Assembly (NCBI GenBank): GCA_963697995.1
Contig: OY969110.1
Location: forward strand, 1,063,404-1,127,403
Direction: 5' to 3'
From: an uncultured Chlamydiae bacterium
GTDB taxonomy: Bacteria > Chlamydiota > Chlamydiia > Chlamydiales > JAJFMB01
Length of the DNA stretch: 64,000 nt
A program made the position numbers and the translations under genes. Every line of letters starts with the position of its first letter. Within the stretch, counting starts at the first letter, position 1. This document shows positions 6,399 through 26,053 of the stretch, piece by piece. A model generated the notes under the pieces. The model searched no databases. It was not told the DNA's origin and saw only the letters and a program-made list of their open reading frames with translations.

Positions 6399-7940
6399 TT
6401 ATTGCGTTAAGGTGAGCGATTTTTTAACTTCGTCCACATCCACAAGGGCAATATACGCTTCTTTGTCTTCAACGCCGAGCGTTACAGCTATATGTTTTCC
6501 TTCGTGATCTAAACTCATCCCTGCGCAGTATTCGATGCCAATAGTTTTGATGTAAAATAAGGGGGAGGCTTTTGTGATTTCGAATTTTTTATTGAGGAAA
6601 ATAAAGCGATGAAGGTAGTAGCGTCTATCGGTGTAGGCCACTTCGTGTACAATAACTAGGTAGCCGTCATCGAAGGGAACAGGGCCGGCTGATCCTCTAA
6701 ATCGGGAAGTGTCTAAAAATGAGTTTGTTTCGATTACTTTTTTTGTGGTTCCCGTGATGGGATCCACTTTAAAGACAATTAAGGGATCGTATGAATAGAT
6801 CGCATGAATTTGTTGGTTTAGGACAAATGGAAGCCAGTTTTTTTCACACCGTTTTGGATCGGGTCCTTTAAGAGGAGTCATTTGCGTAATGCTTGCATCT
6901 TCTCCAATTTTACCAAGACCTATCTGAATCGTGTTGTTTGGATTGGCATCGACAAGCGAGCTTGTGAACCAATTCTCCCCATTGAACTTAAACAGGCGGC
7001 AATCCTCTTTCCCTTCGGCGTACCACCAGGGAAATTTGGGGTAGTTTGATTTATCGAGAATCTCTTCTTGCGAGAGGCGCTTAAATGATTTATCCATCGA
7101 AATAAGAAAATTGCGGGTGACGATTTTCTTGTTATTAGGATCGCGGGACCAGAAGTGTTTTGCATTTTTTTGCCCATAGTTGACGGTTCTACAAATCACA
7201 TCGTACCCATTCTCCGTCTTTTGGATCGAAGGGTTCATGGGATTGAAGTATTCAGTGTCAGTGATTTTAGGAAGCTGCACATCGACTGGGATAAGGGTTG
7301 CCTTAAGCTGCTTTGAATAGAAAATCGCGTTGTTGAGAGCCTGGTTTTTTGTGTACCAGGGAGCCTCCTTGTTGACAAGAAGGCGATTGAGCGCTTGATA
7401 CCCCTCCTCTTTGTAAGGAGTGTAAAAGCTTGCAATCGAGAGTTCCTCGTCGAGAAGGTAGCTGTAAACTTCTTTTGACATTAACGGGGTAAAAGTTTTA
7501 GGTTTTGGAAGAGCTTTTCCTTGTCTTGCATAAAAAGTGGCCATCTCATTTTGACCTTTATACCTAAAAAAACGTGCCAGCTCGTAGAGAGCTTCAGCTC
7601 TTTTGGGATTGAGTTGAAATGCTTTGGTAAACGCCTCTTCTGCGCGGTTAAGCTCCTTTTTCTCTTCATAACATTTTCCAAGGGTCAAATAGCTTCGCCA
7701 CACCTCTTCACTTAAATCTCCCCTTTCAACTCTCTTCTCAAGCCATTTCATCGAAGTATTGATGAGACCTAATTTTTTACTTGTTTCCCCCAAGTAAAAC
7801 ATCGTATGGGGATTGTTTGGATCCTTCTCAATCAGGTTTAAGAGTTTGACAAGATTTTTTTCCGTCTTGTCGGTATCTGCTAAGAGAAGTCCTGGTATTA
7901 CAAGTAAAAGAAGGATGCGGTACATGAAAAAAAGCCTCAT
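6399..7940 (-). CDS. Signal peptide plus TPR N-domain plus conserved ~300-aa C-domain (possibly a GH130/DUF377-like beta-propeller); paralog 1 of 3
   Basis: 513 aa with N-terminus MRLFFMYRILLLLVIPGLLLA. TPR-like helices are present (MFYLGETSKKLG...LGKCYEEKKELNRAEEAFTKAFQLNP). C-domain motifs are NPSI, RTVNY, EDCRLF, EKNWLPF, IYSYDP, GSAGPVPFDDGYLVIVHE, YLHRFIFL, SPLFY and GVEDK. Confidence 0.6.
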   Translation of the reverse strand: MRLFFMYRILLLLVIPGLLLADTDKTEKNLVKLLNLIEKDPNNPHTMFYLGETSKKLGLINTSMKWLEKRVERGDLSEEVWRSYLTLGKCYEEKKELNRAEEAFTKAFQLNPKRAEALYELARFFRYKGQNEMATFYARQGKALPKPKTFTPLMSKEVYSYLLDEELSIASFYTPYKEEGYQALNRLLVNKEAPWYTKNQALNNAIFYSKQLKATLIPVDVQLPKITDTEYFNPMNPSIQKTENGYDVICRTVNYGQKNAKHFWSRDPNNKKIVTRNFLISMDKSFKRLSQEEILDKSNYPKFPWWYAEGKEDCRLFKFNGENWFTSSLVDANPNNTIQIGLGKIGEDASITQMTPLKGPDPKRCEKNWLPFVLNQQIHAIYSYDPLIVFKVDPITGTTKKVIETNSFLDTSRFRGSAGPVPFDDGYLVIVHEVAYTDRRYYLHRFIFLNKKFEITKASPLFYIKTIGIEYCAGMSLDHEGKHIAVTLGVEDKEAYIALVDVDEVKKSLTLTQ

Positions 7941-9448
7941 TTGATTGAAAGATTATTTATTACAGACTCAACAGGAATAAGAGCTATAAAAGACGTTTTG
8001 TCTTCAACTCCTAAGGTGAGGACAACGTTTTTTTCCTCGTGGTCTAAAGTCATTCCTGAACAGTACTCAACCCCAATTGTTTTAAAGTAAAAGAGGGGAG
8101 AAGCTTTTGTGATGCGGAACTCTTGGTCTAAAAAGAGAAATCTGTGGTAGTAGAAAAATTTTCCTGCAAGAGCTCTTTCGTGCACGATGACAAGATAGCC
8201 CTCTTCAAAAGGGATGGGTCCAGAAGATCCTTGAAATCTGGTTCCATCAAAGGGACACTTGTGTTCTACCACTTTTTCACATTTTCCTGTGTCAAGATCG
8301 GGTTCTAAGATAATGGTTGGATCGTATGAGTAAATCATTTGGATCCGATCGTTGTGAACAAAGGGTAACCAGTTTTTTTCCGCTCTTTTGGGATTGGGGC
8401 TATTTAAAGGAATCACTTGTCCCGTCTTAAGTTTTCCTAAGGCTACTTGAGGCGTATGAGTGGGATTAGCTTCTGTAACAGCACAACTAAAAAAGTTCTC
8501 CCCATGATAAGAGAAAAGGCGGCAATCCTCATTGCCTTCCATTTCCCAAGGGAATTTGGTGTAGGTGGAGTGATCAAAGATCTCTTCTTCTGACGTGATG
8601 AGAAACTCTTTATCCGTTGTGACAAAAAGGTTGCGACTTATAAAGATGTATCGTTTGGGATCGCGGGTTAGTAAGCTTTGATTGTTCTCTTCATTGATTT
8701 TTTCATAATTGACTAAGCGGCAAATCAGTTCATACCCTGATTCTGTTCTCTGGATCGAAGGGTTAATAGGATAATACGATTCTTTTTCATCGATTTTTGG
8801 ACAGGTGACATTTAAGGGAATATAGGTGGCATCGATAGGTTTGATATAATAGCGAAGATTGCTAAAAGCTTGATTTTTGATGTGGAGGGGAGCCTCTTTG
8901 TTTAAAAGTAGTCTGTTGATCGCATGAAGCCCCTCCTCTTTTTGAGGGGAGTAGAAGGCGGCAATCGAGAGCTCCTCATCTAAGAGGTAGCTAGACACTT
9001 CCCTAGAAATGATCGATGACTCCTCCTCTGGTAGGGAGATTTTTTTTCCTTCAAGGGCATAATAAGTGCAAAGTTCATTTTGCTCTTTTTTCCTGGCAAG
9101 TTTTGCCAAATGATAGAATGGCTCAGCAAATTTGGGAGCGACTTCTCTTGCTTTAAGATAAAACCCATTGGCCTTATCGAAATCTTTTTTCTCCTCATAG
9201 GCTTTTCCAAGGGCAAGATAGGAGAGCAAAAGTTCCTTTGGAGTGCCTCCTAGGTCAATTTTTTTTTGGATCCACTTTAACGAAAGGTCTGTTAGACCCA
9301 AATTTTTGTACGTTTCAGCAATCTCTTCCATCAGATGAGCATTTTTGGGGTCGCAATCTTGCTTTTTTAGGAGCGCTAGAAGATCGTCCTCCGTTGTAGC
9401 TAGAAGAAGAGATGAGAAGGTTGAAAGGAGAAGAAAAGTTCGTAGCAT
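7937..9448 (-). CDS. Signal peptide plus TPR plus the same conserved C-domain; paralog 2 of 3
   Basis: 503 aa with the same architecture and motifs as 6399..7940 (EKNWLPF, GSSGPIPFEEGYLVIVHE, YYHRFLFL, SPLFYF, GVEDK). A 4-nt overlap with the downstream paralog suggests co-translation. Confidence 0.6.
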   Translation of the reverse strand: MLRTFLLLSTFSSLLLATTEDDLLALLKKQDCDPKNAHLMEEIAETYKNLGLTDLSLKWIQKKIDLGGTPKELLLSYLALGKAYEEKKDFDKANGFYLKAREVAPKFAEPFYHLAKLARKKEQNELCTYYALEGKKISLPEEESSIISREVSSYLLDEELSIAAFYSPQKEEGLHAINRLLLNKEAPLHIKNQAFSNLRYYIKPIDATYIPLNVTCPKIDEKESYYPINPSIQRTESGYELICRLVNYEKINEENNQSLLTRDPKRYIFISRNLFVTTDKEFLITSEEEIFDHSTYTKFPWEMEGNEDCRLFSYHGENFFSCAVTEANPTHTPQVALGKLKTGQVIPLNSPNPKRAEKNWLPFVHNDRIQMIYSYDPTIILEPDLDTGKCEKVVEHKCPFDGTRFQGSSGPIPFEEGYLVIVHERALAGKFFYYHRFLFLDQEFRITKASPLFYFKTIGVEYCSGMTLDHEEKNVVLTLGVEDKTSFIALIPVESVINNLSIK

Positions 9449-9457
9449 GTAGTGACC

Positions 9458-11436
9458 TCATTTTATGGAAAGATGTTTTTCAATCGATTCTTTTGGGAAA
9501 ATAGCAAGATACGCCTCTTTATCCTCTTTTCCAAACGAAACAATGATCTCATTTTCGTTGTGGCTCCAAGTCATTCCACAAGCAAATTCAATTCCTGGAG
9601 CTGTAAAGTAGAAAAGAGGGGAGATTTTGGTGATTTGAAACTCTTTGTTTAGAAAGAGGAATCGGTGGAGGTAGTTTCTTCTGTCGGTGATGTTGAGCTC
9701 GTGTATCAAGACCAAGTATCCATCGTCAAAAGGGATTGGGCCGGCAGAGCCACTAAAATTTGAGCAATCAAACTTTGAGTCGGTTTGGTAGGCAATTGTA
9801 TGGGAGCCCGTGTTGGGATCGAGTTTATAAATAGTGAGCGGCTCGTATTTATAAATGGCAAAGATTTCGTTTTGAAAAGCGAAGGGTAACCAGTTTTTTT
9901 CTTTTCTCAAAGGATTGGGGCTGACAAGAGGTGTCAGTTTATCGCAACAGGTGTGATCTTTTGAGATTTTCCCAAGAGCCATTTGCGTGGTATTAAGAAA
10001 ATTGCCGTCACTAATTGAGCAAGTAAACCAATCATCTCCTTTAAAATCAAAGAGATGATAATCCTCTTGTCCAATGACGGGATAGTATGGAAACCTTTCA
10101 TAAACTGCGTTGTCGACGATCTCTCTTTTTATAAGAGGAGTGAATTCTTTGTCAGTTGAGACTAGAATGTTTTTGTTGATAAAGATGCGTCCTCCTATTG
10201 GCCAATAATCCATCCCATTTTTGTGGTCATAGTTGACAAGGCGGTAATTGATGTCGTACCCCGTTTCTGTTTTTTTGATAGAGGGGTTTGTTGCAAAAAA
10301 GGGGTACTCTGGATTGAGGGGAATGGGAACAATTTTAGCTTGAAACTCTTCCATCGGCAAAAAGAGGCGGCTTGGAGTGAGCTTTTTCGAGGAGGGTTCA
10401 GAAGGGGGCGTTTTAATGAGTGTCATCATTGTGGTGATAAAATGATCTATAGTAAATACTTTTGCTTCTTCACTTTCAAGATACGCTCTAATATGAGTGA
10501 GGTACTCTTCATACTCCTCTTTATCCATGGTCTTTAAGAAGGTATAAAGATCTTCTTGGCTCTCAAAATCTTCTCTTGCAATGAAGCAATTTTTAGGAAT
10601 ATAGGAAGTGATATTTGGAGCGCCGTAATAGATAGGAACGACTCCTGCTTGAAAACAGGCGAAGATTTTTTCTGTGATATATCCTGGAATCCCTTTACAG
10701 TTTTCGTAGGCAAAAGCAAACCGGTAATTTTTTAAGACTTCGATTTTCTCTTTGTGGTCCTCCTGGGATCATTCCCTTGTAGATACTTAAGCCAAGAGGC
10801 GCCCATCCACTTGAGCCGAAAAGTTCAAAATCTTGCTTGTGGTGTGTTTCAAAAAAATCAGCCAGAATTTTTCTTTCACGCGTAGAGCGCATTTGGAGCT
10901 CGGGAGTATCCAAAACTTGCGACCATTGCGCAAAGTTTTTTGTTTTCAAAAGGGACGATGTCCTTCGTCATAGGGTAGAGGACAGGGTAGTGAATTTTGA
11001 AGTATTTATTATTGTCGACTAAGGTGTCGAGGACTGTGTAAATTTTTCCGAAATATTTGTGGTATTCAACATCGTAATCTTGCGGCATTGTCGCTGGGGG
11101 CTCCCAAAGAAATAAGATGAGTTTTTCTTTCGGATATTGGATCAAAAACTGTTCTGGAACTGATCTATCAAATGAGATCAAATAGTCGACTTGCGAGTGA
11201 TGCGGAGGGGGAGAATAGGGGTTACCTACTTGGAGATTAAACTCCTCATTTTTTGCAACCCGATAGAATTGCCGGGTCGCATCCTGATTGTAGTATATGG
11301 GAGGGCCTTCCCCTTCAAAAAGATGGTCTCCCCAAAAAAGAGGATAAAAGAGTGTGGTTTTTGTGGTCTCCACGGCGTTAAGCGTTACGAATAAGAAAAA
11401 AAACAAAATGGGCATCATCACCACCACTCTCCTCAA
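9458..11436 (-). pseudogene. GT10 (alpha-1,3-fucosyltransferase-like) domain fused to the conserved C-domain (paralog 3 of 3); the GT10 part is interrupted by two frameshifts
   Basis: Four pieces in three frames read as one protein. (1) 10876..11436 gives MRRVVVMMPILFFFLFVTLNA...ENKKLCAMVASF. (2) 10695..10949 gives RSTRERKILADFFETHHKQDFELFGSSGW. (3) The frame of ORF 9458..10528 is open upstream to about 10770 and encodes the GT10 signature EKIEVLKNYRFAFAYENCKGIPGYITEKIFACFQAGVVPIYYGAPNI (10726-10622). (4) It continues without a stop into the C-domain (NPSI, EKNWLPF, GSAGPIPFDDGYLVLIHE). Confidence 0.7.
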
Positions 11437-11515: not shown

Positions 11516-13508
11516 TTGTTGAAAACAATCTTTTTTAAGGAGTCTCATTTGAAACTTTTTCATCTAGTGTTGAGTCTTTTTTTCTTTTCCTATCTTGAAG
11601 CCGTGCCCTACAAGGTTGCTGTCATCTGGACAGGTCTTGGAGAGTTTGAGCTGGCACAAAGAATTGAAAAGTCTTGTCACAATTTAGGGTGGCAATGTCT
11701 TGTGGTCTATGGGGGAGATCCAGCGAATGATTTTCATAAGACGTTTGCCGATCTTGAAAATCCTCAAGACCCATCTTCCTTGATAGAGCATTTTCAACCC
11801 GATTTTTGTCTTCATTTAAAAGAAAATATGAAAATTTATCCTTATGCTCCGAATTACTTAGCTGTTACAGGTTGTTCAATTGAGTTTTTTGATGGGCATT
11901 TTGCTGTAAATGAAGAGTTATTTAAATATGATGGGTTTTTATATTCGAGTCCAAGAGTCAATTCTTTAAAGAGTTTTTTTGAGTCTTCCGGACGAAAATT
12001 TAATGGGTTACTTTGGTATGTTTCTTGCCCTAAGACTGACTATCAACCTATTGGGCATCAGACCCTTTTTTATTGTGGATTTCAGTGGGATCCAAAAAGA
12101 ACAAGTCCTGCTTTTTTAACTTTGTACACTCTTTTGAGTGGGAAAGGATATTTTGAGGTTTGGGGTCCTGAGAGTTCCTGGTCTTATTTGCCTCGATCGT
12201 ATCGAGGTTTTATTCCTTTTGGGGGAGATTTTCTTCAGAACGCGATTAGAGAGGCTGGAATAACTCTTGTATTACACTCACAACCCCATATTTATTTGGC
12301 AGCTCCCTCTTCTAGGATTTTTGAGGCCGCTGCTGCTTGTAGCGTTGCCATTTCAGACAGACACCCTTTTATTATGGAACATTTTGGCGATTCTGTTCTT
12401 TATGTTGATGATTATTTAAGGGGTGAAGAGATGTTTTCTCAAGTCGATGCTCATATGCGTTGGATTTTTGCTAATCCTAAGGAAGCTGAAGATCTTGCAA
12501 AAAGAGCTCATAATTTATTTGTAACGAAATTTTCTCTCGAGAAGCAACTTGAAAATTTAGGCAAAATGCACGAGAAATGTTTAGAGGATCGCTTTAAAAA
12601 AATCGTGATTGGGGGCGTTTGCAAAAATGTGGAATCCTGTTTGAAGAAAACGATTGAGAACATCGAAGTCTTTAGCGAGTCGTTTCTTCGATTATAGAGT
12701 CGTTATTTATGAAAATAACTCATCAGATGCTACGCCTCTTCTTTTAGCTGAGTGGGCAAGGCGTGATCCAAAAGTGAAAGTGATTTCTGAAATAATAGAT
12801 GATGTGGCCTCTTCTAGAACAGAGAAAATTTCAAACGCGAGAAATAAGCTTTTGTCTTGTATAAAAGAGTCACAATATAATGAGTTTGAAACCGTTGTTA
12901 TTGCAGATCTTGATTTTAAAACCGATTGGCCAATAGATGCAATTTGTGAAACAATTAACACTCCAGGGGATTGGGATGGAGTTTTTGCAAATGGGATACT
13001 CTCTTCTGGAGTCTATTACGATCGGTATGCTTTCCGGGATAAAGAGCACCCTTTTGGTCCTGAATTACTGGCAAATTCTTGGTGGACAGAAGTCACTGAT
13101 TGGGAAAGAGGGATTGTTTTTAAAGCTGATCAACCTTGGCATCCTGTTTATTCAGCTTTTGGAGGACTTGGGATTTATAAGAGACAAAGCCTTTTAAACG
13201 CTTTATATTCGGGTCTTGCGACCTGGGATTTACAAAAGTATATGTCTCAAATCATCCAAAAAACCTCTAAGGAAAATAAAGATTTAAAGTATTATGCTGA
13301 AATAAATGGCATCAATCTTGATTTAGATTTAAAAGATGTACCTATAGTTTTTCGATATAATTCTATCGGTACAGCGGAAAATTCTCCATGGGTCACCTGT
13401 TGTGAACATTTGCCATTTCATGCTTTGATGAGTTTGCAAGGGCATGGAAATTTTTACATTAATCCGAAAATGGTGATGAAATATTCCGATGAAGAAATAT
13501 TCCGATAA
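11516..13508 (+). pseudogene. Two-module glycosyltransferase (CgeB/GT1-like N-module plus GT-A, possibly CAP59/CMT1-like, C-module) with a 1-nt frameshift near 12680-12690
   Basis: N-module: RIFEAAAACSVAISDRHPFIMEHFGDSVLYVDD...ANPKEAEDLAKRAHN. ORF1 ends IENIEVFSESFLRL*. ORF2 continues SRFFDYRVVIYENNSSDATPLL.... This is collinear with the paralog 14248..15217 (IDNIEKLGAKFSDYRALIYENNSTDGT), so one reading frame is expected. The start codon is uncertain (TTG at 11516). Confidence 0.65.
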
Positions 13509-13526
13509 TAGAGAGGAAAGTATTGC

Positions 13527-14237
13527 ATGTTTAGAATAAGTTATTTAATCAGTTTTTTGTTGATGGCATCTAGTTGTTTTTCTCAATACTACAGTCAGAT
13601 TGGGCAAGATGAGACCGTCAATTCGAGGTATTTCAAAAATAAAAGGGATGGGGTTTTTGTCGATATTGGGGCTCACAATGGAGTGACCTTTAGCAACAGC
13701 TGTTTTTTTGAAAGGGCACTTGGATGGAAAGGTATTGCAGTCGAACCAATTTCTGAGGTTTATGAAGAATTAAAGAAAAACCGCACTTGTGAGTGTGTTA
13801 GGGGCTGCATCACAGATTTTACGGGACCTGGGGATTTTGTCAGGATTAAGTCTCCCTTTGTGAACACCGAGATGCTTTCTGGTTTACTCCAAAAATACGA
13901 TCCTCGTCATATGGAGAGAGTCAAAAGGGAGATTGAGACTTATGGGGGTTCTTATGAAATCATTAAAGTTGATTGCTATCTCATAAATGATCTTTTAAAT
14001 AAAATGGGTTTTAATCATATAGATCTATTGAGTTTAGATACCGAAGGGGGAGAGTTTGAAATTATTTCCTCGATCGATTTTAGCAAGTTTGAGATTGATG
14101 TGATAACCCTAGAGGATAACTATCATGATTCCCGTTTTATTCCTTTTTTAGAATCTAAAGGATATCGATGTATTGAAAGAAACCATTTTGATCTTCTTTT
14201 TGTTCGCGAGGCTTTTTTGAAAACGGTTCAAGGATAA
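13527..14237 (+). CDS. FkbM-family SAM-dependent methyltransferase with an N-terminal signal/anchor
   Basis: VFVDIGAHNGVTFSNSCFFERALGWKGIAVEP and IDLLSLDTEGGEFEIISSIDF match the FkbM (Methyltransf_21) pattern. The N-terminus is MFRISYLISFLLMASSCFS. Confidence 0.75.
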   Translation: MFRISYLISFLLMASSCFSQYYSQIGQDETVNSRYFKNKRDGVFVDIGAHNGVTFSNSCFFERALGWKGIAVEPISEVYEELKKNRTCECVRGCITDFTGPGDFVRIKSPFVNTEMLSGLLQKYDPRHMERVKREIETYGGSYEIIKVDCYLINDLLNKMGFNHIDLLSLDTEGGEFEIISSIDFSKFEIDVITLEDNYHDSRFIPFLESKGYRCIERNHFDLLFVREAFLKTVQG

Positions 14238-14247
14238 GGGAGGATCG

Positions 14248-15217
14248 ATGAAGTTTGCTCAAATTTTTCTCTTTTGTGTTTTTTTTGAGACGGCTTTGAT
14301 GGGAGAGAGTGTCAGTCAGAAAAAAATACTGATCTGTGGGGTTTGTAAAGATACCGCGTTTGCAGCGGTAAATTCGATCGACAATATTGAAAAATTGGGT
14401 GCTAAATTTTCCGATTATCGGGCTTTAATTTATGAAAATAATTCAACAGATGGAACAGATTTTATTTACAAGGAGTGGGCTCAACAAAATAATCGTGTCG
14501 TTTTTCAATCAGAGGTGATTTTGGAGGCCGATCTTGCGCTTTCGCGCACTGAAAGAATAGCCAATAGTCGCAATCACCTCCTTTCATGGATTAAAGAGCC
14601 TCAATACGATGAGTTTCAATACGTGGTGATGGTAGATTCTTGACTTTATCACTCCTTGGCCAATAGAGGAGATTTGCAAAACGATTGAGACTAAAGGTCA
14701 TTGGGATGTGGTCGGAGCTAATGGTCTTCACGCGGAAGGGTATTATTATGATCGTTATGCTTATAGGGGAACAGATTACCCTTTTGGTCCTGAATTGATT
14801 GGAATTACATTTTGGGACGAGGTGAGTTCTGGCCCTAAGATTCATTTTAAAGAAGAGAAGTCTTGGGTTTCAGTTTATTCTGCCTTTGGCGGATTGGCTA
14901 TTTATAAGAGAAAAAGCCTCTTAAAAGCGAGTTATTCGGGTTTAGTCACAAGTGACTTAAAAAAGTACTACAGCTATATATTCAAACTAGTTTCAATCGA
15001 TAATCCTCAATTTAAGAAATATTGTGAATTAAATGGGTTTCGTAGAGGTTTTGATCTAGGTAAATATGCAGTTATTTTTAGACAAAATAGCCAGTGGTAT
15101 TCTGCTGATAACTATTTTAAAATCACTTGTTGCGAGCATGTCCCATTTCATGCTTCGATGGCTCTCCAGGGACATGGGAAATTTTATATCAATCCAAAAT
15201 TGATTATGAAGTATTAA
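14248..15217 (+). pseudogene. GT-A (possibly CAP59/CMT1-like) glycosyltransferase module, paralog of 12591..13508, with a 1-nt insertion near 14638
   Basis: ORF1 ends ...YVVMVDS*. Removing one T in gatTcttgac restores VVMVDLDFITPWPIEEICKTIETKGHWDVVGANGLHAEGYYYDRYAYRG, which is collinear with VVIADLDFKTDWPIDAICETINTPGDWDGVFANG...YYDRYAFRD in the paralog. Confidence 0.7.
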
Positions 15218-20086: not shown

Positions 20087-20208
20087 AATCTCTACTTGAT
20101 TTAAGCTCAAATGAGCAATTTCTTTTAGAAAAATTTTTAATAAAAGGTGATTTTTTTAAAAATCTTTATGAATGATTGCAACCTTTAAAATCTCTTCTAG
20201 GCGGTCTT

Positions 20209-21504
20209 ATGTCATTTAGATTTTTTTTTCTCTGTTTTGGGATTTTAGGAATACAATTTTTAAATGCGGCAAGTTCAATAGGTGTCGTTTCTTTAGCTAT
20301 TGGAGACTCGTATAAGGCCCTTGTCGAGAATGCGATAAAAAATAAAGTGCAATACTGTCAGCTTCACGGTTACGACTTTTATTGTCCCGAACACTCTTTA
20401 GACTCCTCTCGATCCCCCCTTTGGAGCAAAATTCCAGCAATTTTAAAAGCTATGGAAAATTCTGAGCATCAGTGGATTTTTTGGACAGATGCCGATGCTT
20501 TATTTACTAATTTTGCTTATAAGTTAGAAGAATTTATAGATGAAAACTATCTTTTTATAGTTAGTAAAGATGTTTACGATATTAATACGGGTCATTTTTT
20601 TATTCGGAATTGTGAAAGGGCAAAACAGCTATTAAGAGACATGTATGCAAGAGAAGAGTGTGTCTCTCATGAATGGGCGGAACAGATGGCTTTTATTTGC
20701 GAATATCGAGAAAAACCTGAAGTGAGGGCATTTACAAAGTTGATACCTCAACGTTTGATCAATTCATACCCTCCCGAACTGCTTCTACATAGTGACAAAC
20801 CAGATATTTGTATACATAAGAAAGGAGACTTTATTATTCATTTTCCTTCCTTGAAAGGGGAGTATTTGAAAAAGTGTATTGATACTTATGTTAAGAAAGT
20901 TGTTAATTCTTACGATTTTTTGACTTTAGGTAATTATTTTAAGCTTTATGGATTTCAGAAAGAATCGATAAATTTTTATCTGGGGGAGAAAGTCTTAACA
21001 AGGCCTAAGAGGCGACAAATGAGGGAGTGTCTTTTGGGAAAATCCTCTATTAAACGGATTGCCTGCTGGGGATTACATCGGGGAGGGGTCACTGATATTT
21101 TTTTTAGAAGGTGTCGTGATTTAGATATTTTATTGAGTTTCGATGCTATTTCTTGTCCTGAGACACTAGTGGCCAAGGAGTTTTTTTCTCGAAAATATAG
21201 AGAAAAGTTTGTTTTTTGTGAAAAAGATTGTTTAGAAGAAACTTTAGTTGCGGATAAGCCTTTTGATCTTATTTATATCGATTCTCATAGAGGTGATAAG
21301 GGGTGTTTATCTGACCTTGAAAAGATCCGTTTCTTGGCTGATTCTGAAACTATTTTGTGGATTAACAATTATACAGATTCTGTTCACGAGGCCGTGTCTA
21401 AAGCGGTCGAGAACGGGTTGATAAAAATTTTAGCTATTCATCATTCTCAAAATAAAAATGATATTCGAGTTTGGTGTGAGGCTCAATATAAAATGGAGAG
21501 GTAA
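20209..21504 (+). CDS. Two-domain protein: GT34 (GMA12/MNN10)-like nucleotide-sugar transferase plus a class-I methyltransferase-like C-domain, with an N-terminal signal/anchor
   Basis: N-domain: YCQLHGYDFY...PLWSKIPAILKAMENSEHQWIFWTDADALFTN...NTGHFFIRN...EQMAF. C-domain: FDLIYIDSHRGDKGCLSDLEK...ILWINNY, resembling the 23801/24749 family. The ATG at 20209 gives MSFRFFFLCFGILGIQFLNA. Confidence 0.6.
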   Translation: MSFRFFFLCFGILGIQFLNAASSIGVVSLAIGDSYKALVENAIKNKVQYCQLHGYDFYCPEHSLDSSRSPLWSKIPAILKAMENSEHQWIFWTDADALFTNFAYKLEEFIDENYLFIVSKDVYDINTGHFFIRNCERAKQLLRDMYAREECVSHEWAEQMAFICEYREKPEVRAFTKLIPQRLINSYPPELLLHSDKPDICIHKKGDFIIHFPSLKGEYLKKCIDTYVKKVVNSYDFLTLGNYFKLYGFQKESINFYLGEKVLTRPKRRQMRECLLGKSSIKRIACWGLHRGGVTDIFFRRCRDLDILLSFDAISCPETLVAKEFFSRKYREKFVFCEKDCLEETLVADKPFDLIYIDSHRGDKGCLSDLEKIRFLADSETILWINNYTDSVHEAVSKAVENGLIKILAIHHSQNKNDIRVWCEAQYKMER

Positions 21505-22198: not shown

Positions 22199-23203
22199 AT
22201 GAGTCTAAAGTATTTTTTCTTATTTCTTATTTTTATTCAGCCTTTAAGAGGAGAAAATCGATGGGAGCCCACCGAATTTGTTTGGAATTTAGGTTTGGCT
22301 TCCCTTTGTGATGAAGGTTTAGATAAAGATCCAATCGCTTATTTTCAGGGATCGATAGGAACACCTCGTTTTGATATTGATGAGTCTTCACAAGTCGTCT
22401 GGACAAGAGCTTGTTTTATGAAGCTCTTTTGTAGTGAGGTGTTGCCAAAACTTAAAAAACCGATCGTCTTAGTGATAGGGGATGGAGATTTGTCATTTCC
22501 CTCTCAGTCGATCTCTCCTTTTGAGATGTGTCAGCTCATTGAAAATAAAAATATTCTCCATATTTTTGCTCAAAATTGCGATTATAGGGGAGAAAGTTCT
22601 AAAGTTTCCCGATTTCCAATAGGGATTGATTTTCACACGATAGCGTTTAAAAATCTCAATATTTGGGATGAAAAATCAACTTCTAAGGAGCAAGAAGCCG
22701 TTCTTAAAGGTATTTTGTCTACTTTGAAGCCCACGGATCAGCGAAAATTGGGTGCCTTTGTCGATTTTCAATTAAACGATACCATGAGATCGGGTGATAA
22801 CCAAAGGTATCTAGAGTTTGGTGAAGATCGCACTTCTATTTTTAACCGTATCGGATGCTTAAAAATGATAGATTATCCTGAGTGTCCCATGAAGCGAAGA
22901 GAGCTTTGGCAAAAAAAGGGGGAGTACGCTTTTTCTATAAGCCCCATTGGAAATGGTCTTGATTGTCACAGAACTTGGGAAGATTTGGTGTTGGGTTGTA
23001 TTGTGATTGTAAAAACTTCCCCTTTGGACCCTTTATATGAGGGGTTGCCTGTAGTGATTGTAACAGATTGGGATGAGATTACTGAAGAGAATATGAAAAA
23101 ATGGCTCGAACAATACAAAGATGCTTTTACAAATCCGAAATATAGAGAAAAACTAACAAACACTTATTGGATCAATAAAGTGAGGGATGAACTAAGGAAA
23201 TAG
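22199..23203 (+). CDS. Secreted/anchored hypothetical protein (weak glycosyltransferase-like C-terminal pattern)
   Basis: 334 aa with N-terminus MSLKYFFLFLIFIQPLRG. The C-terminal HRTWEDLVLGCIVIVKTSPLDPLYEGLPVVIV only loosely resembles GT-B/exostosin-type motifs. Confidence 0.4.
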   Translation: MSLKYFFLFLIFIQPLRGENRWEPTEFVWNLGLASLCDEGLDKDPIAYFQGSIGTPRFDIDESSQVVWTRACFMKLFCSEVLPKLKKPIVLVIGDGDLSFPSQSISPFEMCQLIENKNILHIFAQNCDYRGESSKVSRFPIGIDFHTIAFKNLNIWDEKSTSKEQEAVLKGILSTLKPTDQRKLGAFVDFQLNDTMRSGDNQRYLEFGEDRTSIFNRIGCLKMIDYPECPMKRRELWQKKGEYAFSISPIGNGLDCHRTWEDLVLGCIVIVKTSPLDPLYEGLPVVIVTDWDEITEENMKKWLEQYKDAFTNPKYREKLTNTYWINKVRDELRK

Positions 23204-23221
23204 CCTTTTGGCTATTTCCTT
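23194..23221. terminator. Perfect 12-bp hairpin spanning the stop codon of 22199..23203, between convergent reading frames
   Basis: aaggaaatagcc-tttt-ggctatttcctt. Confidence 0.55.
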
Positions 23222-23233
23222 AAAAAGGGCTTA

Positions 23234-23413
23234 CTAAAAGTTGCTGCTAGCATGAACACTCATTCTAAGCTCCTCGGCAGCTCTTGTGACTCCTTTCCTA
23301 ACCGATTCCCAATACCAGTCATCCCCGCACATGATCCCATCTTCTCTTAAGTGCTTTGACCAAGCGATAATATTTTTGTATACATTTCCTTCCGCGTGAG
23401 AAGCGTCGATATA
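23234..23413 (-). pseudogene. 3' fragment (59 codons) of a class-I methyltransferase-like gene whose 5' part is missing at the MITE boundary
   Basis: Minus-strand translation gives IYIDASHAEGNVYKNIIAWSKHLREDGIMCGDDWYWESVRKGVTRAAEELRMSVHASSNF*. It has the same D..H...DDW.W pattern as 23801..24550 and 24749..25495. The reading frame runs straight into the element terminus at 23416 with no start codon. Confidence 0.65.
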
Positions 23414-23415
23414 AA

Positions 23416-23695
23416 TAGTCGGCCCTTAAAAAAGTCCTCTCCCATAAAAAGTGCCCCTTTTGACAAAAAAGGCGTTTTACTCCTCACCAAACCCCTCAAG
23501 GAGGGGTAAGCGTCGTTTACCGCTTTTTTTGTTGCAAAAGGATCGCTTTTTCTTTGGAGAGTGCGTGTTCCATTCGCGAAATTTTTAAGTTTTTCTCATT
23601 GTCATATAATTAAACCTTGCAAAATAGGCTATGTCTTTTCTCCTCGTTAACTGCAAATTTTTCTCAAGGACCCCTTACTTTTTCAGGGCGGACTA
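23416..23695 (+). mobile_element. MITE-like element, copy 1 (280 bp, orientation A)
   Basis: The termini are tagtcggccct... and ...cagggcggacta. It aligns over its full length with 44113..44392 and, in reverse, with 25593..25872 and 51943..52203. It encodes no transposase. Confidence 0.8.
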
Positions 23696-23800
23696 GTTAA
23701 GTCTTTTGGAAGTTGTCAAGAAAGGGACTTGTCTGTTAATCTATTTTTTAGTTGAATGTGAAAAAAAGGGAAAAATGGTTTTTAACTTATGGAGAAAAGT

Positions 23801-24550
23801 ATGAAACAGAAAATGGTCGCATTTATTGGAAGTGTTGTTCTTTCTTGTGGTTATGTCCAGGCAGCTTCATTTGTACCTCTTTACAATGAAGGATTTAGAA
23901 GACCACAAACTGAGGAAGAGAGTTTTTTGGTTGAGCATGTTGAAGCAAGTCTTGCAAAAGCTGAGGTTCTTGATTCTAAGCTTGAATCTTCTCAACTTGA
24001 AATTGGTGGTATGAGTAGCAATAAGGTAAGGCATGTCTTGAATGGTCTTTGCTCTCTTTCTGAGTGCACTTATTTAGAAATTGGTGCTTACAAGGGATCT
24101 ACTTTTGTTTCAGCACTTTATGGAAATCTTGAGACGCTTGCAGAAGCGATCGTTTGTGATAACTGGTCTCAGTTTGATGCCCCACGTAGTCAGTTTTTAG
24201 ATAACTGTGAAAAGCACTTAAGTGGCTATCCATTTGCTATTCACGAATGTGATTGTTTTGCTCTCGATTTGAAATCTATTTCTCATCCTATTAAAGTGTT
24301 TTTTTACGATGGAGAGAACACTTTAGAGGCCCACGAAAAGGCTTTTACCTATTTTAATGAAGTTCTGGATGATTTGTTTATTGCAGTTGTAGATGACTGG
24401 AACTGGGATTTTGTAAGAGAAGGAACCTTCGCAGCCTTTAAAAAGCTTGGATATAGAGTTGTTTTCGAAAAGAACCTTTCCGCAAGACATAATGGTGACT
24501 TAGAAAACTATTGGAATGGTCTATACGTAGCGGTTATTTCAAAAAGTTAA
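23801..24550 (+). CDS. Class-I methyltransferase-like (Methyltransf_24-type) protein with a signal peptide; tandem paralog A
   Basis: The start at 23801 was chosen by RBS analogy (ggagaaaagtATG here, aggagaaaatATG in paralog B). MKQKMVAFIGSVVLSCGYVQA. Motifs include YLEIGAYKGSTF and FIAVVDDWNW. Confidence 0.65.
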   Translation: MKQKMVAFIGSVVLSCGYVQAASFVPLYNEGFRRPQTEEESFLVEHVEASLAKAEVLDSKLESSQLEIGGMSSNKVRHVLNGLCSLSECTYLEIGAYKGSTFVSALYGNLETLAEAIVCDNWSQFDAPRSQFLDNCEKHLSGYPFAIHECDCFALDLKSISHPIKVFFYDGENTLEAHEKAFTYFNEVLDDLFIAVVDDWNWDFVREGTFAAFKKLGYRVVFEKNLSARHNGDLENYWNGLYVAVISKS

Positions 24551-24748
24551 TTCAATTAAGGTCTTTAGGCTCTAAGAAGCTTAAAGACCCTTCACTCTCT
24601 CAACAGTTTAGAGTCCTAAGAGGTTGAGACTTCAGGGTCGACTATTTTAGTGACTCTTTTGGAACTTGTCACGAAATGAGGTTCTTTGTTAATCTGTTTT
24701 TTAATTGATAACATTTCTAAAAATTGAATTTTAATCTTAGGAGAAAAT

Positions 24749-25495
24749 ATGAATAAATGGATGACTTTACTTGGAAGTGTTATGCTTTCTTGTAGCCTTG
24801 TGGAGTCCTCTTCATTTCTAACGCTTTACAACGAAGAAGAAAGAAAACCCCAAACCGAGGAAGAGTTATTTTTGGTCGAGCATGTCGAAGCAAGTATTGC
24901 CAAAGCTGAGGCTTTAAAATCTAAGCTCGAACAACAACAGCTTGATATTGTAGGCATGTCTAGTAGTAAAGTTAGACATTTATTAAATGGTCTCTGCTCG
25001 CTTAATGGTTGTACTTACTTTGAGATTGGTGCTCACAAGGGTTCAACTTTTATTTCAGCGCTATATGGCAATTATGAGTCTATTGTTGAAGCAACCGTTT
25101 GTGATGATTGGTCTCTATTTGATGGACCTCGCGATCAATTTCTCGACAATTGTGAAAAAAATTTAAGTGGTTATCCGTTCACCATTCATGATTGCAATTG
25201 TTTTGATCTCGATTTAAAGGCTATTGCTCATCCGGTAAAAATCTATTTTTACGATGGGAATCATTCAGAAGAGGCGCAAGAGAAGGCCTTTACCTATTTT
25301 AATGAAGTTCTGGATGATTTGTTTATTGCAGTAGTGGACGATTGGAACTGGCATTTTGTAAGAGATGGCACTTTTACAGCTTTTAAAAAACTAGGATATC
25401 GAGTGGTTTTTGAGAAGCATTTGCCTTCAAGGTATAATGGTGACTTAGAAAACTATTGGAATGGTCTATACGTAGCGGTTATTTCAAAAAGTTAA
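24749..25495 (+). CDS. Class-I methyltransferase-like protein with a signal peptide; tandem paralog B
   Basis: 248 aa, collinear with paralog A, including the upstream leader region. Motifs include YFEIGAHKGSTF and FIAVVDDWNW. Confidence 0.65.
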   Translation: MNKWMTLLGSVMLSCSLVESSSFLTLYNEEERKPQTEEELFLVEHVEASIAKAEALKSKLEQQQLDIVGMSSSKVRHLLNGLCSLNGCTYFEIGAHKGSTFISALYGNYESIVEATVCDDWSLFDGPRDQFLDNCEKNLSGYPFTIHDCNCFDLDLKAIAHPVKIYFYDGNHSEEAQEKAFTYFNEVLDDLFIAVVDDWNWHFVRDGTFTAFKKLGYRVVFEKHLPSRYNGDLENYWNGLYVAVISKS

Positions 25496-25502
25496 TTTTT
25501 TA

Positions 25503-25540
25503 AGACTTTAGGTCTAAATTGACCTAAAGTCTCTTTTTTT
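25503..25540 (+). terminator. Rho-independent terminator after paralog B
   Basis: agactttaggtc-taaatt-gacctaaagtct followed by cttttttt. Confidence 0.75.
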
Positions 25541-25592
25541 GCCCTTTCGGTGTCAATCTAATTTGATAAAGTCAAACTCTAGTGTTTTTATT

Positions 25593-25872
25593 TAGTCGGC
25601 CCTGAAAAAGTAAGGGTTCCTTGAGAAAAATTTGCAGTTAACGAGGATGAGAGACATAGCTTATTTTGAAAGGTTTAATTATGTGATAATGAGAAAAGCT
25701 GCAAAAATTTCGCGAATGGAACACGCTTTCTCCAAAGAAAAAGTGATCCTTTTGTAAAAAAAAAGCGGTGAACGACGACCCAAACCCTCTTGAGGGGTTT
25801 GGTGAGGAGTAAAACACATTTTTTGTCAAAAGGGGCACTTTTTATTGGAGAGGACTTTTTCAGGGCCGACTA
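25593..25872 (-). mobile_element. MITE-like element, copy 2 (280 bp, orientation B)
   Basis: It has perfect 19-bp terminal inverted repeats (tagtcggccctgaaaaagt) and is flanked by the direct repeat TATTTA when the terminal TA is included. Confidence 0.85.
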
Positions 25873-26053
25873 TTTATATTGTTTCAAACATTTAAAGGTT
25901 TAACAAACCCTTTGAAGAACAACGGATTGCTTATCCGTATCGGGAAAAAAGTTTTATGCGAAATGTTAAAGGGGAGAGGGACTTAAGCAACCCCTTGAAT
26001 CCGCGTTTGGTAAAAAAATAAGGTTAATTTGAGTGTATCGTTGGTAGGCTTCT

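Follow-up and report, generated by a model that had tools for sequence, protein, structure and literature searches.

The locus examined here raises the question of how a methyltransferase gene came to lose its 5′ half beside a repeat element, and whether that element belongs to a mobile unit. The window, i.e. the whole 64-kb stretch of DNA analysed, carries copies c1 and c2 of the element in inverted orientation on either side of the tandem paralogues A and B, and a minus-strand ORF encoding the C-terminal part of a methyltransferase-like protein (60 aa) runs directly into the terminus of c1 at 23416 (Table 1). Both features had been described in an earlier note on this DNA and are borne out by the coordinates. 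The same note held that the gene was not simply interrupted, and this remains so: the loss of the 5′ half is best explained by a MITE-linked deletion.

Table 1. Features of the methyltransferase locus and copies of the repeat element within the 64-kb window.
Feature	Position	Strand	Description
Hairpin GGAAATAGCC-TTTT-GGCTATTTCC	23196–23219		Over the stop codon (23201–23203) of the 334-aa gene, before the convergent remnant
3′ remnant of a ~215-aa Methyltransf_24-type gene	23234–23416	-	60 codons (23237–23416) plus stop 23234–23236
Left flank of c1, TAAATA	23412–23417		Preferred target hexamer, inside the coding sequence of the remnant
MITE copy c1	core 23418–23693	+	Left flank TAAATA and right flank TAGTTA (23694–23699) unmatched
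Leader of A	23694–23800	+	Homologous to the leader of B from MITE tip to start codon
Paralogue A	23801–24550	+	Predicted class I methyltransferase fold, N-terminal hydrophobic segment; start in public record (P0272) at 23789
Solo MITE tip TTCAGGGTCGACTA	24631–24644	+	Upstream of B, where the right end of c1 sits upstream of A
Paralogue B	24749–25495	+	74% protein identity to A, dS 0.96
MITE copy c2	25589–25876, core 25595–25870	-	Perfect 6-bp duplication TATTTA on both sides
MITE copy c3	44108–44397, core 44115–44390	+	7-bp duplication TAGATTA
MITE copy c4	51939–52211, core 51945–52205	-	Duplication TAAATA; 18-nt internal deletion; one altered tip

The ORF at c1 lacks a start codon and is cut inside a conserved (L)IYID motif. 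It aligns with positions 72–105 of the 105 positions of Pfam Methyltransf_24 (PF13578), the last third of the domain only, with a score of 23.0 bits that falls below the gathering threshold of 26.3. A word-indexed homologue search with the 61-aa stub returned no matches, but exhaustive phmmer did identify homologues (348 at E <1e-3, best E 2e-18). The remnant is collinear, without interruption, with residues ~148–208 of relatives of 213–220 aa (47–57% identity), which at full length carry ELGSWxGxS, IDAxH and GDDW motifs. Homology to these relatives stops at 23416, exactly at the element tip, and an in-frame stop codon is reached three codons into c1. The first ~150 codons of the gene are absent from the 64-kb window, including the far side of c1 and of c2, which agrees with the earlier report that the N-terminal half does not lie beyond the element; tblastn with residues 1–147 of seven relatives gave weak matches inside gene A (E 0.005–0.04), and all others had E >0.5. 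No second copy of the stub was found within the window. An assembly made independently from different reads (Logan ERR11563597, L001) shows the identical fragment/MITE junction, so the junction is not an assembly artefact. L001 was the only further DNA found for this organism, and exact look-ups of A, B, ArgRS and DnaK had no match on record. The hairpin between the remnant and the convergent 334-aa gene probably acts as a bidirectional terminator. The 60-codon ORF is best annotated as a remnant of a pseudogene.

The repeat is a 276-nt element (GTCGGCCCTGAAAAAGT…ACTTTTTCAGGGCCGAC) with four copies in the 64-kb window, and two invariant internal words match in these four copies only (expected matches 0.00 and 0.07). 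The copies have in common terminal inverted repeats of 19 nt (TAGTCGGCCCTGAAAAAGT / ACTTTTTCAGGGCCGACTA), with perfect inverted termini of 17–19 nt in c2 and c3 and private changes in both tips of c1. They diverge from one another by ~10%, and c1 is ~90% identical to the others. Matching target duplications, all perfect, flank c2, c3 and c4; c1 alone lacks one (TAAATA on the left, TAGTTA on the right), as had been observed previously. The c2 copy is located between the terminator of B (25503–25532) and the 3′ end of argS, and c4 is inserted at the stop codon of a 457-aa ORF. For c3, a nearby paralogous copy of the insertion site (44514–44760) is empty and consistent with a duplication of 7 bp. 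The copies are overlapped by ORFs of 41–66 aa only, and neither a longer element with the same termini nor an autonomous IS5 copy was found within the 64-kb window. A search of Rfam yielded no family matching the element, and an internal 18-mer searched against a collection of species genomes, in which the source genome is not included, gave 19 chance-level matches only. The element is thus short, has inverted termini, is flanked by duplications (c1 excepted), occurs in dispersed copies, has no transposase and shares its termini with an autonomous element. Judged from these sequence features, it is a MITE that is non-autonomous and derives from an insertion sequence of the IS5 family.

The family assignment draws on metagenomes, where the exact 18-nt terminus is present in >120 contigs. 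It bounds both MITEs of 113–373 nt and longer elements of 1409–1569 nt, each of which contains a single ORF of 426–480 aa. Two of these ORFs were tested against NCBIfam NF033578 (IS5 family transposase) and scored 556 and 527 bits, with a cutoff of 275 bits; the Pfam domains of the partner transposases are DUF772 and DDE_Tnp_1. Complete metagenome elements are flanked by repeats of TATTTA, TAAATA, TATCTA or GAGAATA. Among elements of transposase size, L131 (1481 nt) has TATTTA on both sides, while L106 (TACTTA/GACTTA) and L117 (TAGATA/TAGCTA) show one mismatch each. Both TA dinucleotides of a TA(N2-3)TA target are found in 72 of 104 unique flanks of metagenome copies, 15 of the 104 being TAAATA/TATTTA. 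This hexamer also flanks c4, the element in L140, and an annotated IS5-family element on the Methylomonas koyamae plasmid pLM6 (NZ_CP023670.1, 23282–24800), which has TATTTA on both sides. As read from these flanks, the family duplicates 6–7 bp at TA(N2-3)TA targets, with TAAATA/TATTTA the commonest. A duplication of TA only, as in the IS630 type, was rejected since the empty site of c3 and 10 complete elements have repeats of 6–7 bp. The terminus of a Pseudohalocynthiibacter IS5 element (L147) differs from that of this family.

No description of the terminus, of a 6–7-bp TA(N2-3)TA duplication or of relevant chlamydial MITEs was found in the searchable literature. One MITE lineage, found in the source genome and several metagenomes, has an internal module composed of CTCCTCAC, a hairpin and CGTCGTT, and the hairpin stem exhibits compensatory differences between lineages. 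Such changes would point to selection on structure, e.g. a hairpin bound by the transposase or used by the host, and not on sequence alone. We tentatively raise the possibility that the MITE and its partners form an undescribed and widely spread IS5 subgroup with a near-invariant 19-nt terminus across very different elements and habitats and an unusual 6–7-bp TA(N2-3)TA duplication.

The target preference also bears on the symmetry of the outer flanks. The 9 nt at the outer side of c1 (ATATAAATA, 23409–23417) are indeed the reverse complement of the 9 nt outside c2 (TATTTATAT, 25871–25879), as pointed out in the earlier note, and this symmetry could have been a sign of rearrangement. It does not serve as one, because six of the nine bases are the preferred hexamer and the other three are coding bases of the truncated gene, from its conserved I-Y-I-D codons. 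The counter-suggestion, that insertion-site preference alone accounts for the symmetry, holds for the six hexamer bases only. The full 9-mer occurs in none of the 104 other flanks, and the three additional bases are thus best read as chance.

Paralogues A and B, taken alone, fall below the Pfam threshold (E 2e-3), and PF13578 is present in many members of their family according to family profiles. An AF2 model of A built from a 40-sequence alignment reached a pLDDT of 93, compared with 36 from a two-sequence alignment, and the top 50 PDB matches to the model are all SAM methyltransferases (E ~1e-7, TM ~0.5). A and B are accordingly modelled with a class I SAM methyltransferase fold, which is a structural prediction. 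The description of the stub as a third member of this family is not supported, its relationship to A and B being remote: profile–profile comparison gave an identity of 20% (hhalign probability 97%, E 7e-11), and BLASTP gave one 29-aa match with an E of 1e-4. By sequence comparison, the stub and A/B are remote homologues and not close paralogues.

The A/B pair goes back to an old local duplication in tandem (dS about 0.96), which gene conversion has since homogenised in part; B contains tracts identical to A at A coordinates 24342–24388 and 24488–24553. Both leaders contain TTGTCA-N18-TAATCT, a candidate promoter of the two genes, and a consensus promoter scan identified no plus-strand promoter in either leader. 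The solo MITE tip upstream of B is the sole such match outside the four copies (0.19 expected for all matches). A MITE body was sought beside it and scored no better than shuffled sequence, and 14 nt remain.

The only syntenic relative, and the closest relative found (L141), encodes an M20 peptidase, a radical SAM protein, a methyltransferase, a 335-aa gene and an A/B orthologue in this order. The 334-aa protein is 66% identical to its L141 orthologue, and the A/B orthologue (61% identity) directly follows the orthologue of the 334-aa gene with overlapping stop and start codons and no MITE between them. Neither the Methyltransf_24-type gene nor a MITE is present at the locus in L141.

These data are consistent with a history in which the methyltransferase gene lost its 5′ half through a MITE-associated deletion at c1, a reading that we consider probable. 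A complete methyltransferase gene would once have lain at the locus: in the ancestral state, a full Methyltransf_24-type gene of ~215 aa would have been convergent to the 334-aa gene, with a MITE ~100 nt upstream of A. The deletion would have joined the left tip of this resident MITE to a TATTTA site within the IYID codons of the gene, with the loss of the first ~150 codons, the promoter and the intervening DNA, and what remained would have been a dead stub of 60 codons beside a MITE lacking a matching target duplication. This could have occurred if the resident MITE recombined with another copy that had inserted in the gene in direct orientation, or if the left end of the resident copy attacked the nearby TATTTA site intramolecularly; both routes would fit the one available sequence equally. 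The left junction of c1 lies at the preferred target hexamer, as expected for a junction made by transposase. The c2 copy is a separate simple insertion downstream of B, its perfect duplication showing an independent event.

The order of events at the right end of c1 is less straightforward. Since the 14-nt tip and the leader recur upstream of B, the junction at the right end of c1 should be older than the deletion. Such an age sits poorly with the ~90% identity of c1 to the remaining copies, given the dS of 0.96 between A and B. The conflict would disappear if gene conversion later carried the leader and tip to B, or if recombination replaced the body of c1.

As L141 lacks a methyltransferase gene at the corresponding site, the fragment could also have arrived already truncated, and this observation favours two further explanations. 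In one, c1 results from recombination between MITEs at two distant loci, through inversion or translocation, so that the 3′ fragment was imported and the 5′ half lies beside another MITE elsewhere in the 2.05-Mb genome. The missing target duplication of c1 and the abundance of the element, with four copies in 64 kb, fit such an exchange, but it is unlikely: the 334-aa gene and A flank c1 in the order and orientation of L141, which a single inversion with a breakpoint in c1 would break, and the perfect duplications of c2, c3 and c4 mean that none of these is the partner. Import of a ~0.2-kb fragment would in addition need two exchanges, and the hairpin common to the stub and the convergent 334-aa gene suggests long residence. 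It is less probable still that the stub was never a full gene here and that aberrant transposition or a partial duplication copied it or carried it in along with a MITE end. Such capture would fit the stub stopping right at the tip of the element, but its left boundary, with stop codons and a hairpin, is that of any ordinary gene and not the edge of a repeat, and a second copy of the stub is missing from the window. To our knowledge, carrying flanking DNA by transposition is not a property of IS5-type elements, which further counts against capture.

The remaining explanations concern c1 and c2 as a pair, or c1 as a simple insertion. An inversion between c1 and c2, as considered in the earlier note, is ruled out by c2, since either a homologous or a replicative route would unmatch the duplications of both copies and that of c2 is intact. 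The proposal that c1-A-B-c2 moved as a composite unit, inserted into or duplicated within the methyltransferase gene, has in its favour the 1.9-kb cargo between two inverted copies and the mutually reverse complementary outer 9 nt. It is nevertheless highly improbable. The outer flanks TAAATA and TATTTA are reverse complements that form no direct repeat around the unit, and they reduce to the preferred target plus three coding bases; the same hexamer inside and outside c2 indicates that c2 inserted on its own. Beyond c2, where the end of argS is 183 nt away, there is no 5′ half of the gene, and the solo tip between A and B shows a local duplication starting inside the element. In L141 the cargo orthologue occupies this position natively, and because it already follows the 334-aa gene there, the module did not move in. 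With c2 independent and A/B an old local duplication, the inverted pair is a coincidence of two events and not a mobile unit. The least credible explanation is a simple insertion with a decayed duplication, the ORF being a chance frame. TAAATA and TAGTTA do agree at four of six positions, and a difference of ~10% among MITE copies would allow for decay, but the four agreeing bases are the TA…TA demanded by the target rule and both free positions differ. The right flank moreover runs into the leader of A and not into the gene, and a chance frame would not have 348 homologues.

The locus illustrates neatly how, in a chlamydia-like genome, a gene island related to glycans or methylation is eroded and rewired by a MITE. 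One gene was decapitated, the formerly overlapping pair of the 334-aa gene and A now stands apart, and insertions occurred precisely at gene ends. With the element family and its target rule in hand, insertions in related genomes can be located and dated.

The event is ordinary transposon-driven gene loss and calls for no new mechanism. Deletions caused by insertion sequences arise by recombination of directly repeated copies or as intramolecular 'adjacent deletions' (IS1, IS903, IS26). The c1 locus resembles these in retaining one element with unmatched flanks, one junction at a fresh target and a one-sided loss of DNA; it differs in that the event is deduced from one genome, and neither a reciprocal product nor the parental state nor an active transposase was seen. 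Composite transposons of the Tn10 or Tn5 type likewise have two inverted element copies around cargo genes, but c1 and c2 are non-autonomous, no duplication surrounds the whole unit, c2 has its own duplication and the cargo genes are at their native locus. Bacterial MITEs that stem from insertion sequences include the Correia elements of Neisseria, RUP of Streptococcus, Chunjie of Geobacter and Nezha of cyanobacteria. The 276-nt element is similar to these in its small size, inverted repeats, duplications, lack of convincing coding capacity and several copies per genome, as well as in window insertions mostly just after genes and termini common to a transposase-encoding element; it differs in its chlamydia-like host and in an autonomous partner that is known from metagenomes only. 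The IS5-family element of pLM6 has related termini (GTCGCCCCTGAAAAGCC… / …TTTTTCAGGGACGAC) and the same TATTTA duplication. In comparison with NF033578-type IS5 elements, the window copies lack a transposase, which is encoded by the metagenome elements with the identical 18-nt terminus. IS5 subgroups in ISfinder generate duplications of 2–4, 8 or 9 bp, and set against these lengths the 6–7-bp duplication may mark a separate IS5 subgroup.

Repeat mapping of the whole window identified four copies (c1–c4) of a 276-nt element, with the element ends defined as GTCGG…CCGAC for the copy coordinates. Pairwise identity among the copies is 84–90%, and the termini form an inverted repeat of 17 nt, or 19 nt including the adjoining TA. 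Two invariant internal words have matches in the window only within the four copies (0.00 and 0.07 expected). The 14-nt tip, allowing up to two mismatches, has nine window matches against 0.19 expected; eight are element ends and the ninth is a solo tip (24631–24644) with no MITE body beside it.

Coordinates of the MITE copies and neighbouring genes, and direct repeats flanking the window copies and metagenome elements
Feature	Position	Strand	Direct repeat	Remark
c1	23418-23693	+
c2	25595-25870	-	TATTTA (plus strand)
c3	44115-44390	+	TAGATTA
c4	51945-52205	-	TAAATA	18-nt internal deletion, one altered tip
Truncated gene	23237-23416	-		left of c1; stop 23234-23236
A	23801-24550	+
B	24749-25495	+
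L059, L113, L131			TATTTA	metagenome loci
L140			TAAATA	metagenome locus
L046, L095			TATCTA	metagenome loci
L053			GAGAATA	metagenome locus

A metagenome scan found the 18-nt terminus in at least 120 contigs. The exact string, AGTCGGCCCTGAAAAAGT, is common to many unrelated element bodies (loci L021–L140) from soil, sediment, lake and marine metagenomes, and its conservation across such divergent elements is unusually strict. Among the matches listed, most are preceded by T and many are close to a contig end, at a distance of approximately 100 nt, which is what a repeat that breaks assemblies would give. Pairing the ends of these listed matches gave complete MITEs of 113–373 nt and ten elements of 1409–1569 nt; among the MITEs, one of 274 nt in L140 shows clear homology to the window element. 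Each long element contains one ORF of 426–480 aa. Two of these ORFs scored 556 and 527 bits against the NCBIfam IS5 family transposase model NF033578 (cutoff 275), and Pfam identified DUF772 and DDE_Tnp_1 in one of the two. The window element is therefore non-autonomous and derived from an insertion sequence of the IS5 family. The MITE has no matching family in Rfam; a SNORD36 match elsewhere in the window (39589–39671, plus strand; 31 bits, just over the gathering score of 30, E 0.59) is, in a bacterial genome, almost certainly due to chance.

One MITE lineage retains an internal module composed of CTCCTCAC, a hairpin and CGTCGTT (23475–23530 in c1 and equivalents in c2–c4; also L140, L062, L021 and relatives). 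The hairpin stem is CCAAACCC/GGGTTTGG in c2, CCTAACCC/GGGTTAGG in L140, CCAATAGC/GCTATTGG in the Ga0180437 family and CCAACCC/GGGTTGG in L062, and is degenerate in c1, c3 and c4; the differences between lineages look compensatory. Within the MITE copies there is also a GTG-started ORF of 45–66 aa (MPLLTK…FHSRNF…), at 23451–23588 (+), 25638–25838 (-) and 44147–44347 (+), which probably just reflects how alike the copies are. Copy c1 has a terminator-like hairpin with a T run on each strand (23453–23473, minus; 23505–23525, plus); none was called at the equivalent c2 positions. If functional, these hairpins would make c1 an insulator between A and the 334-aa gene to the left of the truncated gene; the orthologues of these two genes overlap in metagenome contig L141.

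The insertion sites follow a common rule. Among the matches listed, 88 of 104 unique metagenome flanks have T at -2, completing the element-adjacent TA (the A at -1 belongs to the search pattern), and 72 of those 88 also have TA at -6 or -7. The most frequent hexamers are TATTTA and TAAATA, which jointly account for 15 of the 104 flanks listed. The recJ 3' end and downstream terminator region are duplicated approximately 0.5 kb apart (44012–44114/44526–44628, 87%; 44427–44481/44681–44735, 96%), and as c3 lies in the first copy only, the second shows the site unoccupied. Removal of the MITE and one TAGATTA renders the two copies collinear, so the c3 duplication is 7 bp and not TA alone. The insertion point of c4 coincides precisely with the stop codon of a 457-aa ORF (50572–51945; flanks 51939–51945 and 52206–52211). 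The original TAA lies within the duplicated TAAATA, the ORF now stops at a TAG made of the duplication's TA and the element's first G, and its former terminator hairpin (52212–52240) is displaced by 270 nt.

The truncated frame encodes TIYIDASHAEGN…SSNF, with an in-frame stop three codons into c1. It matches positions 72–105 of 105 of Pfam Methyltransf_24, the last third of the domain, with a sub-threshold score because it is only a fragment. An exhaustive search with phmmer recovered 348 homologues (best E 2e-18, 55–57% identity); full-length relatives are 213–220 aa, and the stub corresponds to their residues ~148–208. With seven relatives, tblastn against the window gave alignments at 23416–23237 only, all stopping at the element tip, and residues 1–147 had no match anywhere in the 64 kb. 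The gene therefore lacks approximately 150 codons, which lie beyond neither c1 nor c2. The junction is real, since it is identical in an independent assembly of another read set (Logan ERR11563597, L001), whose contig breaks off inside c1. Database proteins P0123, P0124, P0141, P0150 and P0182 (80–85 aa) contain nothing but this C-terminal part of the methyltransferase and begin at the conserved Met of RMxSxEAA; they may reflect comparable truncations in other genomes or start-codon artefacts.

The inverted copies c1 and c2 bracket the plus-strand genes A and B, whose proteins are 74% identical. Their dS is 0.96, compared with 1.26–1.34 to the gene of L141, the closest relative found; being closer to each other than to that gene, they stem from an old duplication that took place locally, within this lineage. 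The A/B homology starts in the MITE tip (TTCAGGG…, 23682 and 24631), spans a leader of ~100 nt and ends just past the stop. By the time of the leader's duplication or conversion, a MITE end was thus already in place upstream of A, and the right junction of c1 is older than the event that made the left one. Perfectly identical tracts (24342–24388 and 25287–25333, 47 nt; 24488–24553 and 25433–25498, 66 nt) against the background dS of 0.96 indicate later, recent gene conversion. Both leaders contain TTGTCA-N18-TAATCT, a possible promoter that a consensus promoter scan did not call. Many of the 347 homologues of A/B carry PF13578, and a structure model from a 40-sequence alignment (pLDDT 93) had SAM methyltransferases as all of its best 50 PDB matches; A and B accordingly have a methyltransferase fold. 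To the truncated gene's family they are remote relatives only (20% identity, hhalign probability 97%, E 7e-11). Duplicated genes abound in the region, with three more tandem paralogue arrays at 6826–9939, 12684–15215 and 34605–37670 (periods ~1530, 1730 and 1845 nt; 70–77% identity).

The earlier note had correctly described the inverted copies around A/B, the stub ending at the c1 tip and the lack of its 5' half beyond, and had suggested a composite transposon, an inversion or a deletion; of these readings, the deletion is supported. A composite insertion would give one direct repeat round the unit, with the 5' half of the gene on the far side of c2. The hexamers outside c1 and c2 are not direct repeats, the 183 nt separating c2 from argS contain nothing of the truncated gene, and c2 is flanked by TATTTA both inside and outside the bracket, as a simple insertion would leave it. 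The order in L141 is that of the window (M20 peptidase, radical SAM, class I methyltransferase, and a 335-aa gene 66% identical to the 334-aa gene), followed directly by a 247-aa gene, 61% identical to A, whose start overlaps the preceding stop (ATGA), with no MITE and no convergent gene at that junction. A therefore sits at its ancestor's place, and the composite reading is not supported. A 442-aa GT34 glycosyltransferase gene (20176–21504) is absent from the syntenic L141. By standard strand-transfer geometry, recombination between c1 and c2 or replicative intramolecular inversion would swap the flanks on the inner side, so that neither copy had a matching pair; as c2, c3 and c4 all retain matched duplications, none took part in an inversion. 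The outer flanks ATA|TAAATA of c1 and TATTTA|TAT of c2 are reverse complements, which had been taken as a possible sign of rearrangement. Six of the nine symmetric bases are the preferred target, present at three of the four window copies, and the c1 9-mer is native gene sequence, as it falls within the ATT TAT ATC codons of a conserved I-Y-I(D) motif. The 9-mer occurs in none of the 104 other metagenome flanks among the matches listed, and the c1 and c2 flanks are unrelated outside it. The three extra A/T matches, picked post hoc in 40% GC DNA, have by our estimate a probability of roughly 0.03 and are read as chance.

A MITE-associated deletion at c1 probably truncated the methyltransferase gene, as supported by the junction at the element tip and preferred hexamer, the unmatched c1 and the absence of the 5' half from the 64 kb. 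In the simplest history, a full methyltransferase gene of ~215 aa would have been convergent to the 334-aa gene, with a common hairpin at 23196–23219, and a MITE would then have been present upstream of A. A transposon-associated deletion would have fused the left tip of that MITE to a TATTTA target site within the gene, either by recombination with a second, directly oriented copy already inserted at this site, or by intramolecular attack on it by the resident copy's left end, an adjacent deletion. Adjacent deletions have been described for other IS elements. Under either route, in line with what is observed, the junction would coincide with the element tip and a preferred hexamer, the element would have no matching duplication, and the intervening DNA, for a minus-strand gene the 5' half and promoter, would be lost. 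The main rival, an exchange with a distant MITE copy that left the 5' half elsewhere, is unlikely and at odds with the fact that the 334-aa gene and A have kept their order and orientation.

The event at c1, read as an IS-type deletion, is of a well-known kind, and so is the element itself, a bacterial MITE of an IS5-family element. The terminus string is absent from the searchable literature, in which this particular terminus, the 6–7-bp TA(N2–3)TA duplication and the chlamydia-like host appear to be undescribed; the host was assigned from the names of homologues, which are Rhabdochlamydiaceae, Parachlamydiaceae and Chlamydiales MAGs. A related terminus, with TATTTA on both sides, is found in an annotated IS5-family element of the Methylomonas koyamae plasmid pLM6.
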